From Podarcis gaigeae (lineage: Eukaryota), in assembly GCA_964106915.2 (NCBI GenBank), contig OZ066920.1: a stretch of DNA of 64,000 nucleotides. One strand, written 5' to 3'. The translations under genes and the position numbers were made by a program. Below the pieces are notes generated by a model, which had not been told where the DNA came from, ran no database searches, and saw only the letters and a program-made list of their open reading frames with translations. Numbering within the stretch: position 1 is the first letter of the stretch; the number at the start of each line of letters is the position of its first letter. Positions 5,814 through 59,594 of this stretch are shown here, piece after piece.

Positions 5814-6346
5814 TGTCAGGCGTGGACCGGCAGCCGGCTTGATAACAGCACACAAGATATAATTAACTGGTAGATTTATTGCAAGCAACAATTACAGTGG
5901 TACCTCTGGTTACGAACTTAATTCGTTCTGGAGGTCTGTTCTTAAGCTGAAACCGTTCTTATCCTGAGGCGCACTTTCACTAATGGGGCCTCCTGCTGTG
6001 CGCGCCCCTCCAGCGCACGATTTCCATTCGCATCCTGGGGCAAAGTTCGCAAAGTTCTAGAAGCAGCTCCTTACGGGTTAGCAGAGCTCGTAACCTGAAG
6101 CATTTCGTAACCAGAAGCGTTCGTAACTCAGACCGCTCTATCGGAGCGTCCATTCATAACAGTCAAGTTACTCTTCTGAAGAGTCCTTCTGGTTTCTGCA
6201 GAATATCCTGAACTTCCGACCCTTACGTTTTAGGGCTTGTTTTCTTTCTAGGACTTTCCCTATTCACCCGGTTTTGGGGCTAATGGTGTTAGTTGCCTCC
6301 TCTTCCTGTGAGGAACTGTTCACACTCCTTTGTGCCCGGCATGACT
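5814..6346 (-). mobile_element. Solo LTR-like element (TGTCA...TGACA family) interrupted by a MITE
   Basis: Start TGTCAGGCGTGG is the reverse complement of the end of the 34105-34594 element. Right end uncertain, no TSD seen. Confidence 0.5.
5895..6132. mobile_element. Truncated pogo/Tigger-like (Tc1-mariner) MITE
   Basis: TA|CAGTGGTACCTC terminus and an internal body related to 51641-51882; right TIR missing. Confidence 0.8.
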
Positions 6347-25152: not shown

Positions 25153-25379
25153 TACCTCGGGTTAAGTACTTAATTCGTTCCGGATTAACCTGAAACTGTT
25201 CTTAACCTGAAGCACCACTTTAGCTAATGGGTCCTCCTGCTGCTGCTGCACCACCAGAGCACAATTTCTATTCTCATTCTGAAGCGAAGTTCTTAATCTG
25301 AGGTACTATTTCTGGGTTAGCGGAGTCTGTAACCTGAAGCGTATGTAACCTGAAGTGTATGTAACCCGAGGTACCACTG
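25153..25379. mobile_element. pogo/Tigger-like MITE (left TIR clipped)
   Basis: Ends GAGGTACCACTG|TA; near-identical to 51641-51882. Confidence 0.9.
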
Positions 25380-26046
25380 TATCCTTTGTCCATCCAATTC
25401 AATGTGGATAGAAAAACTTCTTTGGTGTGTGGAGGATGAGGGTCTCTCCCAGACATCCAATAAATGATTGAGTGTGCCCTTGTCACACTTCCATCTCTCT
25501 TTATTGAAAGTGGTACCACATGTCAATGATTCAAGGAACTGTGATGATCTCTGGATCCTTGCAGCATCTGTAGAAAGGACTCTATGAACTGAAAACATAG
25601 GTGTGGTATGTACCTTTGTTATCCATGAAAATCTTTCAATAAAAGAATTTTTTTTTAAATAAAATTTAAAAAATCCCCATGGACCTCATATACAGTATTA
25701 GGAGGAATACCATGGGTACACACAGAGGCTTGTTGCAGGAACAGGGTTACCATCTCATATGTGAATGTCGCGCAACTCCATATTCAGAATGGGTATACCT
25801 GCACTGTTTTCACATACATGCTGTTTTGCTCAATGAGCATTTGATAGTTTCTATTGCTTTTTCATGAATGACGGTTATATATATTATGTGATACACAATT
25901 TATTCTTCTTGTTCTTCTCTGGGGATCAATTATAGCCGAGTAAGATTGTCTTTCATGAACATGGTTTTAAAAGTGAGTCTGTAAGTGCCTGTGGAGGCCA
26001 ATTCGGGTTCCATACATCCTTCCATGGGCGGGAGTTGATCACAGTG

Positions 26047-26411
26047 GTAAAGGTAAAGGTACCCCTGCCCGTACGGGCCAGTCGTGTCCGACTCTAGGGT
26101 TGTGCGGCCATCTCACTTAAGAGGCCGGGGGCCAGCGCTGTCCGGAGACACTTCCGGGTCACATGGCCAGCGTGACGAAGCTGCTCTGACGAGCCAGCAC
26201 CAGCACCGCACACGGAAACACCATTTACCTTCCCGCTATAAAGCGGTACCTATTTATCTACTTGCACTTAGGGGTGCTTTCGAACTGCTAGGTAGGCAGG
26301 CGCTGGGACCGAACAACGGGAGCTCACCCCGCCGCGGGGATTCAAACCGCCGACCATGCGATTGGCAAGCCCTAGGCGCTGAGGTTTTACCCACAGCGTC
26401 ACCCGCGTCCC
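26047..26411 (-). mobile_element. Sauria SINE, full length
   Basis: Reverse-complement homolog of 30874-31236 with an (ACCTTT)n tail. Confidence 0.95.
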
Positions 26412-26482
26412 AGACATATCAGATATTAAGCTGATAAGAACAGATACTACACTTGATCTTAGCCAAAAGGCTGAGAAGCGAT
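26412..26482 (-). pseudogene. RNU2: U2 snRNA 5' fragment (nt 1 to about 71), retrocopy
   Basis: ATCGCTTCTCAGCCTTTTGGCTAAGATCAAGTGTAGTATCTGTTCTTATCAGCTTAATATCTGATATGTC matches the U2 5' end, including the GTAGTA branch-point-pairing motif, with a few substitutions. Confidence 0.95.
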
Positions 26483-27621
26483 CACAGTGAGGGTTTGCCA
26501 AACATGCCTTCCTCTTCACATGTTTCTCCCTTTCTCCCTGCGTCTGAGTGTCTTCAAAGTCCTTGGCACCTTTGATAAAGGCTGTTCTCCAGTTGGAGCT
26601 CTCGCAGGCCAGAGTTTCCCAATTGCTGGTGTTTATGTGTTATATGTGTTATATTTATTATGTGAATCATTCACAGATCTATTCATCAATTCACTTTTCG
26701 ACAAACTATTGCTCTTTTCTGTTTGCATATGAACATTCTTTCTCTCTCTCTTCATGTAGCATCAACACAACCCTATAATATACTCAGAATCTCAGGGAGC
26801 CAGGAGGAAAAGCCAGATTTCTTTGATCTAACTCTTTGTCCTTTGCATTTGACCTAACAATTGTCAAACTCTCTGTGTTGTTTCAAACTCTTTTATTACA
26901 CTCACATATCTTTTCTGTTGTTGTTGTTTCAAAGAGAAACAGAAACTCCTGATGATGAAGCTGTGTTTGATCATGTGCACTCATGTAACTGCTCAACCCC
27001 AAACTGAAGCATTCAAGTTCGGATGAGACACTGTCACCGGGTAAAACAGAACAGAGTAAAAGGATTGACAATTTAGTCTACAAATGCTCAACTGACACCT
27101 TGTCCTTCACTCTGACTTGCTAAAATACAGTGGAGAGAGGGGATGGAAAGAGCCAGCATGAATTCCTTCACCATGCTGGTGAACTTTGCCTCCAAGGACT
27201 AAAATACAAGAAAGGTTTCAGAAGCGAGGGTTTCTTTGCAAAATGTCTGAGTGGTATTTCATGTGGTTAACCCATTCAGTGTTTGGAAACCTCAACCATA
27301 TGCAGCTTGCTTCCACTATTACTGAGGGCAAAAGTATATTGACAGAGGTGCAGCTGTGTCTTTAGACATGGGTCGCTCACCAACAAACACCTGTAAAGTG
27401 TGGGTGGGGTCATTTCAATTAGGAAAATGTCAAGAAGGAACGGATGCTGAACACTGCTTCAGGTTTTACCAACATTTAGCCTGCAATCTTCCACCTTCAG
27501 CTTTCTTCAAAAAAAATCTGGCCACCTAAATATGTTTCAGAGAAGGCATATTATTTAATTTGTAACCTCCTCTTTTGTATGTCTGTTACTTTGCAGAGCA
27601 GGGATGGGGAATATGGGCCTC

Positions 27622-27717: not shown

Positions 27718-28044
27718 GGGACGCAGGTGGCGCTGTGGGTTAAACCACAGAGCCTTAGACATGCTGATCAGAAGGTCGGTGGTTCGAATCCCTGTGATGG
27801 GGTGAGCTCCCGTTGCTCAGTCCCTGCTCCCGCCAACCTAGCAGTTCGAAAGCTCATCAAAGTGCAAGTAGATAAATAGGTACCACTCCGGTGGGAAGGT
27901 AAACAGCGCTTCCGTGCGCTGCTCTGGTTCGTCAGAAGCAGCTTAGTCATGCTGGCCACATGACCCGGAAGCTGTACGACGGCTCCCTCGGCCAATAAAG
28001 CGGCAACGACTGAACCTAATGTTCAGGGGTCCCTTTACCTTTAC
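27718..28044 (+). mobile_element. Sauria SINE
   Basis: Consensus motifs; TSD CTAGACTCTCCCCA at 27702-27715 and 28045-28058. Confidence 0.95.
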
Positions 28045-30618: not shown

Positions 30619-30754
30619 CCAGGGTAGTCAACTTGTTGCCCTCCAGATGTTGTAACCTACAACTCACATCATCCCCAGCCAGCAGGACCAATAGCCAGGG
30701 TTGATGAGAGTCATAATCCACAATACCTGGAAGGCACCACATTGCCTACTCCTG
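30619..30754. mobile_element. hAT-Charlie-like palindromic MITE
   Basis: CCCTCCAGATGTTG..CTACAACTC.CATCAT..GATGAGAGT..CTGGAAGG hairpin body. Older relatives near 1057-1178, 2630-2742, 52655-52765 and 57885-57990. Confidence 0.7.
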
Positions 30755-30873: not shown

Positions 30874-31236
30874 GGGATGCGGGTGGCGCTGTGGGTAAAA
30901 GCCTCAGCGCCTAGGGCTTGCCGATCGAAAGGTCGGCGGTTCGAATCCCCGCGGCGGGGTGCGCTCCCGTTGCTCGGTCCCAGCGCCTGCCAACCTAGCA
31001 GTTCGAAAGCACCCTCGGGTGCAAGTAGAAAAATAGGGACCGCTTTCTAGCGGGAAGGTAAACGGCGTTTCCGTGTGCAGCTCTGGCTCGCCAGAGCAGC
31101 GATGTCACACTGGCCACGTGACCCGGAAGTGTCTTCGGACAGCGCTGGCCCCTGGCCTCTTGAGTGAGATGGGCGCACAACCCCAGAGTCTGGCAAGACT
31201 GGCCTGTACGGGCAGGGGTACCTTTACCTTTACCTT
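30874..31236 (+). mobile_element. Sauria SINE (young, CpG-rich)
   Basis: Consensus motifs; TSD TAAGTTGCACAGA at 30857-30869 and 31237-31249. Confidence 0.97.
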
Positions 31237-39417: not shown

Positions 39418-39526
39418 CGAGGTTGGGACTTACTTTTCAGTAAACATACACACACTAAAGCTGCAATCCTAAACCCACATATGTGGGAGTTGTTGATATT
39501 TGTCTGTCTCAAGAGACCATTGAGTG

Positions 39527-44518: not shown

Positions 44519-44724
44519 GGGACGTGGGTGGCGCTGTGGGTAAAACCTCAGTGCCTAGGACCTGCCGATCGCATGGTTGGAGGTTCGAATCCCCGCGGCG
44601 GGGTGCGCTCCCGTCGTTCGGTCCCAGCGCCTGTCAATCTAGCAGTTTGAAAGCACCCCCGGGTGCAAGTAGATAAATGGGGACTGCTTACCAGCAGGAA
44701 GGTAAACGGCGTTCCGTGTGCTGC
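44519..44724 (+). mobile_element. Sauria SINE 5' half, cut off at the Penelope element
   Basis: Head and core match 30874; 3' half absent. Confidence 0.9.
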
Positions 44725-51640: not shown

Positions 51641-51882
51641 CAGTGGTACCTCAGGTTAAGTACTTAATTCGTTCCGGAGGTCCGTACTTAACCTGAAACT
51701 GTTCTTAACCTGAAGCACCACTTTAGCTAATGGGGCCTCCTGCTGCCGCCGTGCTGCTGGAGCACGATTTCTGTTCTCATCCTGAAGCAAAGTTCTTAAC
51801 CTGAAGCACTATTTCTGGGTTAGCGGAGTCTGTAACCTGAAGTGTATGTAACCTGAAGAGTATGTAACCTGAGGTACCACTG
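51641..51882. mobile_element. pogo/Tigger-like MITE, full length
   Basis: TA|CAGTGGTACCTCAGGTTA...TAACCTGAGGTACCACTG TIRs. Confidence 0.92.
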
Positions 51883-54540
51883 TTTATGAACTGGGTCACA
51901 GCAGCCTTCACACTTTGGGAAAGTGGGATCCTTACAGTTTAGAATGCCACTAAAAATATGGTATGTGTGTTCATCCTGGTATGTGTGTTCAACCTGACAG
52001 AAATTTCTAGAACTATTTCCGGCGTGGACTGCTGCCATCATACTTTGCATCTCACTTCCACACACTGCTGATAGTAGCTGCCTGTGGGGGGCACGAGAAC
52101 ACCTAAAATGATAGTAACAATCCATATTACTAGCTGTAGAACATATAGCCAGGACAGGAATTACACTTGGAGGCCTATTTGGGTGATAAATGTAACCACT
52201 TGCAGTTCTATTCTGGTTGCATGTAACACTTGTAAAATAGAGGTACTATCTCAACAAGGAAATCAAATCCAGGTATTTTATCAGCATTCACTACCATTTT
52301 GGGAGGAATTCTGAATGCAGTTTTTAAAAAAGAAAATTAACTAAAGTCAAACAATAAAACTATGCTGGAAATACTGGTGTCTATGCCTCTGGGTTTCTTC
52401 CAAAGTATTTGCAAAGCAGTTATCAAAACTGCAGCGGCATCTGAAATATGGCAATAATCATGGAAGAGGTGGCTGCATGAATTGCTTTTGCAACATTATG
52501 ATTTTGCCTTAAAGATGAAATAAGTATTGCTGTGAGAAATTGTGTTTTGTATGGAGTTCTTCGCAGCTCACATTGAAGATTTCCTTTCCTCTTTTAAATA
52601 TTGCAAGACAAAGGAAGAAGAACAGAGGACAGGAAATGAAGCAGACATGTAGTACATCTTTCCCCAACCTGATGCTCTCCAGAGGTTGTGGTACTCCAAT
52701 TCCCATCAGCTCTAATGGTCAGGGATGACAGGACTGTAGGCCAACACATAGTTGGGGAAGGCTGATGCAGAGAATTGAGATATCATTTCCAGTTCCAACT
52801 TGGGAAGATGCTTTATTATGTTATATGCTAAATTCATACTAAAACATTTGCTGCAGCAACAACAATATTGTCTACAGTATGAGCAGTCATTTATTATTGT
52901 ATTTCATCTAAATAAATTAAACACTGCTAGCATGAGAACATGGAATAGGAAGAGCTTTTAATAAGCAATCCCATACATATTTCTTCAGAAGTAAGCCACA
53001 CTTCTGTTCATTGTGGCATAGTCAGGCAAATGCTGGGGCACACATCACATACCTTCCAACTTTTTCCAATGCAAAACTGGGGTGCACATCTTCTGGGATG
53101 TGCTTCTAGATAAGTCATGGGACCCATGTCTCACTTCACCTTGGGGGGGAACTTTTTGTGGGTGAGATCTCACACACAGCCCAAAAACATGTGTTGTGGG
53201 TGCTGTGCAAGATAGCAGCCTCCCCAAAACATGCTTTTTCAGGGTGAGAGGTCAGCATGAGAGCACAAGGGATCATGACACCCAAAATGGCCACCAACAC
53301 CTTGCAAGAAAAAACAGGATGTTCTCTTTTTTCCAGTGCACTTGGAAGGTACTGTATAACATAAGTGCTGATACTTATTGGGGGGGCACTGCTGACCACA
53401 ACTCTCTTCTTTGGTCCTTTCAGTGGTCACAATTGTGACTACCACCTTTATTTCCCCAAAATACAATGTGCCATGTTAACTCTTTTGGCTTTATCTGATT
53501 AATATTTTCTTTTTTCATGGTCATTATTTTCTAATGCCTGTGGTAATGGGATATGTATACTATTTTAAAAATGCATTACAATTGATTCTACCAAGAATCC
53601 CCATAAAATCTTTTCTATGACATCATACATTCCACTCAATTTTGACAAATTTTTAGGTTGGGGTGGTCATCTGTCAGTTTCCTGAACCATGCTGATGTCA
53701 CAAATTCAATACTGAAACAGGTCTATAGGGCATCAAGATATTGCAAAATCCAACAAGCATGCTGTGGTAGCTGATAGTGTTGTAGATTTGTAGGGACTCT
53801 TTAAATGGCTCCTGGCCTAAAATATAGTACCCTTGTGGTAAGATGTTCCAGATCAGTCCTTGGCACCATGCCTCAAGCCATTCTGCATAATGCTGCAGGC
53901 ACCACATTCTCACCAGAATTTAACAGAAGAAGGTTCCGCTGAAGCTTCTGAGGCAGATGATGCAACTATTTGGCCTGATGCCAGTAATGCAGAAGTAGAG
54001 CAACAACCATGGCTCAGGAGGCAGAGAGGGGACAGAGCTTCTAGGACATGGCTTCTAAATAATGTAATTTGCTTCTGATTAAGTACTTCAGCTGCAGTCG
54101 GTATTCCCTAAATCTTAGCACCAATTATTCACAGGTACCCAAAGCCTGAAGCACATTATAGCCCTGAAGAAACATGTAAGCTAATGAATATGGACATTTT
54201 TTTAAAAAAAGTTGAACACATGACATTTCTCCTGTGGAATAATAGAAGTGACATATTTCATGTTAAGAGGCAACCTATCCGTTGCTTCTACCCCAAAGAG
54301 ATGAGGACTAATTTACACTTCATAAAAGTGTCTTGCAATTAGCAACACCTACATTACATTTCTATGAAGGAATCTTCACATTCTGTAGGGAACGCCAGCT
54401 GCTAGAAGGCTTCTCTTGAAAAGCCTGCTATAGAGCGTACACGAACAACATTCCCAGGGATATTGTGCGGAGGGCAATGATAAAGAAGCCCCACTCCCAT
54501 GCTGTAGAAGAGTGCTGGGAGAAATTATGCTCCTCTAGAT

Positions 54541-54678
54541 CAGCGGTTCTCAACCTGTGGGTCCCCAGATGTTGTTGGACTACAACTCCCATCATCCCTA
54601 AACTCTGGTCTTGCTAGCTAGGGGTGATGGGAGTTGTAGTTCAACAACATCTGGGGACCCACAGGTTGAGAAAGGCTG
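54541..54678. mobile_element. Young hAT-Charlie-like palindromic MITE
   Basis: Near-perfect hairpin; perfect 8-bp TSD CTCTAGAT. Confidence 0.92.
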
Positions 54679-57240: not shown

Positions 57241-59459
57241 GGTACGAGCCCAGACCCCCCGCCCCCAATATTTTATGCAAGTTGGCCCTGCTGCCCTTTA
57301 TCTAAGGGTCACAGGGTGGTTTACAATATAAAAACACAAAAATACATGCCATAGTAACAAACAAATCCCCTACCACCAGTTTAAAAGGCCATAAATTGTT
57401 TAATTAGCTAAAGACCTAGGAGAAGAGGAATGTTTTTTCCTAGCACCTAGGGATATGAAACAAAGACACCAGACAACCCTCCCTGGGGAGAACATTCAAC
57501 AAGTTGGGATCCACAAGAGATAAGGTCCGTTCTCCTTTTGCCACCCTCTGGACCTCTCACAGACGACGCACATGAAGAAGGACCTCAAATGATGATGGTA
57601 GGATCCACGTTGGTTCATATCGGGGGAAGTGGTCCTTAAGTTATTGCAGTCCTGAACAATTTATGGCTTTATAAGTCAAAACCAGCACTTTGAATTAGGC
57701 CTGGAAACTAATTGGCAGCCAGTGAACTCAGTTCAGGATTGGCATTATATACTAAAAAAAGTCACAGAAATGAAAAAATGGCAGGCTTCATTTCAGCCCC
57801 TTCTATTCTCATTTGTAAATGAGAAGTAAAGAATAAGCACCTCATCAAAATACTAGATGACAAAGTAAAGACAATATCAGAGCTGGCCCTCCAGATGTTG
57901 TTCAACTCCCATTAGCTCCAGCCAGCATGGCTAATGGTTGGAGATGATGGGGGTTGCAGTACAACATCTGGAGAGCCACAGGTTCCTCATTCGTAGACCA
58001 GAGGGAGAAAAAGGCATGGAAATGTCAAATCGTCAGCTTAGTAGTACTAGTAACAGTTCAAGCACGTCTTCAGATGATCTTTGGTCATATTTTGTGGCTT
58101 TAACATTGTGGAAAGATAAAAGCCAGAAGAAAAGTCATATTCTGCTGATTTTCAAGTTCATCCAAATGCTCTTAGCACCTGTTCTTTGGTTTCCCCCCCT
58201 CATTATGTATTTACCTTGGGAAATGTAACATTTCATTCTTGGGAAGAGAGAGAGAGAAGGAGAAAGAATTGTATGAGAGGCAGAGGGAGGTAGAGATAGC
58301 CTTGAGGAAACAGCTGCATCCACTGAATGCAGCTGCATCCACTGAACTTCCTTATAGTGTCACTTTCCATTTCATCATCCTCAGGTAAGAGTTGTCATAA
58401 AAGCTTTATATAATCTGAAACTGCAGTAGTTTCACTTTATGCACATCTTCTCTTTGTACCCATCCTCAATGGTGAAATGCTGTCAAGGTTTCTTCTAGTG
58501 TAGCCCATACAGGTGTATCTTGAAAGAAGAGCTCTCTCACATTCATTTCATTGCATGTCTGCGCATTCAGTGGATTAGGGATCATAGAGCTCTGCACACA
58601 CAGAGCTGTATCCATATGACAGTGAACTCGGATTATGCAGAATTCCTGGCCTTGTGGAAGCCGCTGCATGGGTGCAGTTGCATACATGTCAGGACATTTT
58701 TCAAGTTCAGCTGAAAGCATGGGAATCAGGGGACATGGCAAAAGGAGCAAACTATATGTTAACCTGATGGTGGTTGTGTATGGTTAGTAGATTTATTTTG
58801 TTTTAAGCTGTACTTGGGGTTTTTTTTGTATTCTGCCCTGGGATCTTATGGTAAAGAGTGGGTGAGAAATCTAATAAATAACAAACAATAGCAGCAACAA
58901 CATTGTTCCTGAATTTTAGAATGCTATACTCAGAACCAAGTCTCATTGAGTTCAGTTGGTCATATTCCAGGCTATGTGCATAAGACTGCTACCTTACCTG
59001 GGACATAAACCCCACTGAAGTCAATAGGACTTCTGAGTAGATGTAGATAGGTCTGTGCTATAGGGCAGGAAGCCACTGGAGTATCAAATACATTTTATTT
59101 GCCTGCTTTATTTTATAAAGTAAATGGAGTCCAATTCCATGACTCCATTCATAAACCTTTGACTCTCTATGTGAAGGACCCAGTGCACTTACTGAAAGCT
59201 TAGCAGAGCAGATGCTTGATGTACTTTCCTATCTGTAGATGACCTTATAAATGAAATACGCTGCTCTTTGAAACCAAAAATTAATATGTCTTCATCTAGC
59301 AAATGCTGTAAATCATCACTGGATTACACTAGATTGAGACAGAGGAAATGGATAGTGTAAGCAGAACATAATACATTTCATTCTTGGTGAAACATTGTTT
59401 ACTAATTATATTATGATTCTATCAACTGTCTTGGAAACTCCTCAGACAGAACACTATAG

Positions 59460-59594
59460 CAGGCATAGGCAAACTCGGCCCTCCAGATGTTTTGAGACTA
59501 CAATTCCCATCATCTCTGACTACTGGTCCTGTTAGCTAGTGATCATGGGAGTTGAAGTCCCAAAACATCTGGAGGGCCGAGTTTGCCTATGCTG
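59460..59594. mobile_element. hAT-Charlie-like palindromic MITE
   Basis: Long TIRs; TSD CACTATAG/CACTTTAG. Confidence 0.9.

Follow-up and report, generated by a model that had tools for sequence, protein, structure and literature searches.

A truncated U2 snRNA heads a complete short interspersed element on the minus strand of the window, the designation used here for the whole 64 kb stretch of DNA that was analysed, and the observation of a U2-headed SINE is confirmed. In minus-strand order, U2 snRNA nt 1 to 70/71 (26482-26412) is followed by the SINE from its first base onwards (26411-26047), with the snRNA located 5' of the retroposon, both parts in the same orientation, no spacer in between and thus a flush inner junction. 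The two parts very probably came in one event. The unit is, with modest confidence, considered a one-off chimeric retrocopy, in the generation of which the Bov-B reverse transcriptase would have finished the SINE and then jumped onto U2 snRNA, with a dead-end copy as the outcome. As such, the element is a new combination, U2 with a Bov-B-driven SINE, of an already known type of chimera.

The U2 head and the SINE body

The head (26412-26482, minus strand) has been assigned by the Rfam model RF00004 and its structure line, with a match that starts at 26482, reaches 88 bits compared to a gathering score of 46 and is the sole above-threshold Rfam match in the 64 kb window. The head follows the U2 consensus up to and including stem IIa and carries two substitutions across approximately 66 nt, both at conserved columns (nt 11 and nt 53). 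The break comes after the first 3-4 nt of the 5' arm of stem IIb. The match to the model is artificially prolonged by cmscan over about 30 bases of the SINE, so that genuine U2 sequence stops near 26412-26413. The original prediction had U2 nt 1 to about 71 joined flush to a complete SINE, of which the start at nt 1 and the completeness of the SINE stand, whereas nt 71 may belong to U2 or be an additional base; this ambiguity arises because 2-6 extra bases precede SINE nt 1 in four of the five neighbouring copies with a duplication of at least 10 nt. These extra bases, which separate the duplication from SINE nt 1 at the SINE 5' ends at 30874, 27718, 49213 and 36471, place the T of the TA at a near-constant distance of 15-17 nt before the SINE start.

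The begin of the head at the first nucleotide of the snRNA in the orientation of the SINE fits an RNA template. Within the 64 kb window, a further U2 copy was not found, and equally an Rfam search with E values up to 0.5 recovered no other snRNA head on either side of the element, with 15 weak matches all below the gathering score. For a comparison of the ages of head and body by CpG loss, the head possesses too few sites.

The SINE body (26047-26411, minus strand) has a length of 365 nt and has been delimited by end-to-end alignment with the other copies of the same SINE in the window (n=10). The name Sauria/Squam1, which we take to apply, was set from tail, length and insertion signature, and not by comparison with a library or a consensus. 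The body is complete, since its start column is common to eight of the ten other copies in the alignment, with six of the ten starting at SINE position 1 according to the BLAST table. The best identity of the SINE to a copy in the window is 88.8%, its 30 retained CpG are the joint highest number among the 11 copies, and compared to the two nearest neighbours it has changed at 5 of 21 CpG sites and at 5 of 145 non-CpG columns. Judged by these comparisons, the SINE is a member of a young group, and with the two substitutions of the head set beside them, head and body look similar in age. The element ends with an (ACCTTT)n tail, as described for the Sauria SINE (PMC13295347), and tail and insertion signature of Sauria/Squam1 have been reported together in the literature (PMC13295347; PMC6007223).

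A U2-like head is present on none of the ten neighbouring copies (best local score 5-8), which is a very small sample as 65,000-131,000 copies are given per lacertid genome (PMC10670947, table 1). In metagenome contigs, two motifs of the SINE gave no match. The SINE and its density point to a lacertid as the host organism. Individual neighbours deviate in their own ways: the copy at 39420-39473 carries unrelated sequence, which is not U2-like, in place of the first 55-60 nt; the young copy at 44519-44721 ends near nt 205 and is tailless; and the copy at 27718-28044 misses about 26 nt internally.

Target-site duplication and host LINE

One exact 10-nt repeat flanks the whole unit, with a downstream copy at 26037-26046 and an upstream copy at 26480-26489 (minus strand), the latter consisting of 7 nt outside the head and 3 nt in common with U2 nt 1-3. 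The size of the target-site duplication is thus 7-10 nt, in agreement with the single duplication of 7 nt, extendable into the U2 start, that had been read from the sequence originally. In 20,000 random position pairs, a repeat of at least 10 nt with loose placing arises by chance in 0.16%, and an equally tight 7-mer in 0.075%. Around the SINE alone, the best repeat is 4 nt long, and a repeat of at least 9 nt around the U2 part alone is absent.

Upon removal of the unit together with one copy of the repeat, the homologous protein P0001 aligns over 56 residues without a gap, an alignment that is not restored when only the SINE or only the head is removed. Equally, residues 1-49 and 50-98 of a second homologue, P0002, meet exactly at the insertion site across the two flanks, so that the empty site is codon-exact with respect to two independent homologues. 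As the host LINE is recovered codon by codon once the unit and a single copy of the repeat are taken out, U2 and SINE are highly likely to have come in one event, and the claim that they were inserted as a single unit is upheld by the duplication around the whole and by this empty site. Alternatively, a tailless U2 retrocopy might have arrived first and a SINE have inserted later, directly at the 3' end of U2 and with no separate duplication. Tailless U2 copies are indeed known in a lizard (PMC5322556) and represent the commonest human U2 retrocopy with 57 of 58 (PMC4476161), but this sequence of events needs a second strike on the very same base with neither duplication nor loss of host sequence, compared to a duplication of 10-14 nt retained in five of the eight neighbouring SINE copies examined, and the site is not of the L1-type TTTT/A expected of tailless copies (PMC4476161); it is considered very improbable. 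Capture of U2 sequence as DNA while the insertion was being repaired, or an error of the assembly, is very improbable too, as the head starts at the first base of the RNA and promoter DNA is absent, and an exact duplication together with a codon-exact empty site is hard to obtain by misassembly. A tailless U2 retropseudogene alone had been considered as well and was rejected on the lack of a repeat of at least 9 nt around the head alone and a target that is not L1-like.

Sequence words from the interval 25450-27100 (n=175) occur with a share of 51-66% in 14 of the 24 listed runs, which carry 6 organism labels and derive from 5 studies, shares that cannot separate filled from empty sites. The share near 0.1 in six of the listed runs provides no evidence either way, and an RNA run is not among the listed holders of these words.

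The host of the insertion is a LINE fragment, the upstream part of which (26490-26639, minus strand) corresponds to the end of an endonuclease/reverse transcriptase open reading frame with an identity of 73% to P0001 and 78% to P0002, and the downstream part of which (25905-26036, minus strand) comprises the zinc-finger end, a short 3' UTR and a GAA-rich tail. P0001 was found by searching with the upstream flank alone, as one match among two candidates, and its sequence runs on into the downstream flank. The relative P0014 harbours Exo_endo_phos and RVT_1 and is matched at its C-terminus. As endonuclease and reverse transcriptase domains precede the matching C-terminus in longer relatives, the host fragment represents the 3' end of a LINE. 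We assume that this LINE belongs to the RTE clade. Pfam families were recognized neither in the flank peptide nor in P0001, and an Atlas search returned unnamed clusters only. The reading through of the host upon removal of the unit, as initially proposed, holds at the junction, but not beyond, as the frame shifts about seven codons downstream in conjunction with a small deletion. At about 26020-26030, the host LINE is short of a stretch in the first half of the terminal zinc finger, with a shift of the frame as the consequence, a loss suited to marking the locus in comparisons of orthologues.

Other repeats have been encountered in the surroundings of the element. The host LINE fragment is flanked by an AT-rich direct repeat of 18 nt (25874-25891 and 26648-26665; one mismatch), which may be the older target-site duplication of the LINE itself. 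Related palindromic elements of approximately 90-100 nt at 54560-54660, 59480-59575, 30640-30735 and 57885-57975, sub-threshold for mir-5408, are guessed to be short DNA transposons of the non-autonomous kind. A further interspersed repeat, approximately 230 nt long, is present in three copies which are 74-88% alike (25153-25380, 51647-51883 and 5889-6127).

Routes to a U2-headed SINE

The sequence of events that is, on balance, rather favoured would start with a nick by the Bov-B endonuclease in the old LINE fragment, approximately one helical turn downstream of three T, with reverse transcription primed on the SINE tail, steps which derive from knowledge of the family and are partly seen at this site. 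The SINE would then have been copied up to its first base, where the copy indeed reaches, before a putative template jump to U2 snRNA near nt 70/71 and copying of U2 to nt 1; the jump could have landed on the 3' end of a broken U2 molecule or on an internal position at stem IIb. The end of the cDNA would finally have joined the target via the 3 nt of microhomology visible at the site, to result in one duplication of 7-10 nt. Because the coding sequence of the LINE extends as far as the duplication at the head, the chimera is without a U2 promoter, and as an internal pol III start at the SINE would drop the head, U2-headed daughters of the chimera would not be expected.

The target site contributes to this assessment. 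For the Sauria SINE, a signature has been described in which the duplication begins with a TA and three T precede this TA by some ten bases (PMC13295347), a spacing that is exact in three of the five neighbours with a duplication of at least 10 nt. In the upstream host flank of the chimera, a run of three T is located 11-13 nt before the duplication; its distance to the T that precedes the duplication equals that in these three neighbours, with a background of 3.4% for an exact and 7.8% for a fit within one base in a register that was chosen after looking. The dinucleotide at this outer site is TC, compared to the TA of the published signature. As a whole, the site leans towards a Bov-B cut outside of the U2 head. 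The single outer duplication, the codon-exact empty site, the start at U2 nt 1, the T-run spacing, the headless neighbours, the precedents and the similar ages taken together make a one-off origin somewhat probable, against which the TC site, the post hoc register and the TA spacing inside the U2 head argue. One-off U2 chimeras are rare, as only one of 58 characterised human U2 copies is joined to a repeat (PMC4476161, table 1), and a member of a family is more likely than a singleton to appear in one random window.

This latter consideration applies to a different route, on which a Squam1 SINE would have inserted into an active U2 gene, with the nick at a TA at nt 55 or 58, so that the U2 promoter would have given rise to a U2(1-71)-SINE RNA to be copied by Bov-B from the SINE tail, once or often, possibly with the formation of a family. 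In five of the six ordinary full-length copies examined, a TA is located 15-17 nt before SINE nt 1, and the U2 head possesses TA at 17 nt and at 14 nt before SINE nt 1 with two of the three upstream T each, the trace to be expected of an earlier SINE insertion in a U2 gene. This rule, with two or more T demanded, is satisfied by 4 of 42 head lengths (30-71 nt) compared to a background of 5.8% in the window. Furthermore, the start at U2 nt 1 and the complete SINE need no added assumptions on this route, and U2 and U1 heads have founded families in crocodilians (PMC4494074). However, the spacing test is post hoc, with lengths of 30-71 nt as the only ones scored and 19 of the 42 passing if any TA is accepted, the T run is incomplete at both U2 sites, a second headed copy is not among the 10 neighbours from the 65,000-131,000 copies of a lacertid genome, and a family of this kind was not found in the literature searched. 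A source gene is regarded as the main rival, a possible but rather doubtful origin, and that a Squam1 SINE in an active lizard U2 gene, transcribed from the U2 promoter, seeded a U2-headed subfamily driven by Bov-B is unlikely.

The original prediction had placed a one-off template switch and ligation of RNA side by side as mechanisms, of which template switching emerges as the most likely and ligation is disfavoured. Ligation would have joined a 5' fragment of U2 with a cyclic phosphate to the SINE RNA prior to retrotransposition, as for U6/L1, and agrees with the flush junction and the same orientation of the two parts. Full-length pol III RNA is expected to carry a 5' triphosphate, and the SINE is complete up to the very base on which this triphosphate would reside, whereas RtcB needs an acceptor with a 5'-OH; U2 is also without the natural cyclic phosphate end of U6. 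Ligation by RtcB has been shown for U6 (PMC6789731), but with a triphosphate acceptor 0 of 26 full-length products were obtained (PMC6789731, section 7), and truncated U2 RNAs at the break points of retrocopies are described as not found in human libraries (PMC5322556). The probability of a ligated precursor is consequently very small.

Significance and comparison with known chimeras

As a singleton, the element widens the capture of snRNA to include U2 as well as a Bov-B-driven SINE, and it possesses the duplication missing from the earlier RTE-SINE case, namely the opossum U6-RTESINE1, the sole RTE-SINE case of PMC4476161, which has been left unresolved there; its interest is then limited to specialists of retroposons. 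As the member of a family, it would represent a SINE in which an snRNA promoter has taken the place of the pol III start, with a bearing on the birth and the transcription of SINEU-like elements, a question left open by Kojima 2015. If a subfamily from a source gene should be true, an independent origin of snRNA-headed SINEs would exist outside of the crocodilians, so recent that its source locus with the promoter might still be found, and the question of transcription would be directly testable. A report on a U2-Sauria/Squam1 chimera or family, or on U2 joined to any Bov-B-driven SINE, was not found in a search that scarcely covered subscription journals, repeat databases and supplements, and this absence is accordingly weak.

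Precedents are more ample than the U6-L1 elements of mammals and the crocodilian families to which the original prediction referred. Chimeras in the lizard Anolis include six U6-AnolisSINE2, three U6-L1, three U6-L2 and three U6-RTEX, the last an RTE-like LINE (PMC4476161), and two copies of human U2-Alu chimeras are on record (cited in PMC4494074). U2 is also listed among the RNAs that form chimeras with L1, and in the same source U6/L1 chimeras are each unique and non-propagating and U3 heads are mostly truncated (PMC11838501). Hybrids of snRNA and retroposon are usually one-off accidents.

Among the known systems, the LINEs Keno and Utopia, which have U2 genes as their target, resemble the element as a retroposon that adjoins U2 sequence (PMC4640811). 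They have been rejected as a relation, as in their case U2 is broken at nt 38/39, the 3' part of U2 follows and the element is coding (PMC4640811), whereas the chimera breaks U2 at nt 70/71, lacks any U2 sequence behind the SINE and does not code for protein. U6/L1 ligated by RtcB shares the flush junction of snRNA and retroposon and the single insertion, but consists of a full-length snRNA and a variably 5'-truncated L1, in contrast to the truncated snRNA and the complete partner in the chimera (PMC6789731).

The crocodilian SINEU equally possess a 5' fragment of U2 ahead of a short retroposon (PMC4494074). These elements are present in hundreds to thousands of copies, end with poly(A), prefer Mariner-N4_AMi as a target and are moved by Tx1-Mar (PMC4494074), whereas the chimera is known from one copy, which lies in a LINE fragment, has a complete SINE as its body and ends with (ACCTTT)n. 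Membership in SINEU was rejected on the tail, which is (ACCTTT)n and not poly(A), and on the host, which is the end of an endonuclease/reverse transcriptase LINE open reading frame and not Mariner-N4_AMi, a single site that says little on preference. With the snRNA-headed retrocopies, that is U6-AnolisSINE2 and U6-RTEX-2 of Anolis and U6-Mon-1 of the platypus (PMC4476161) as well as human U2-Alu (cited in PMC4494074), the chimera has in common the 5' position of the snRNA, the same orientation of the two parts and one duplication, features attributed to template switching in those cases. It differs from the retrocopies of PMC4476161 in its components, a U6 head there and a 3'-truncated U2 with a full-length Bov-B-driven SINE here.
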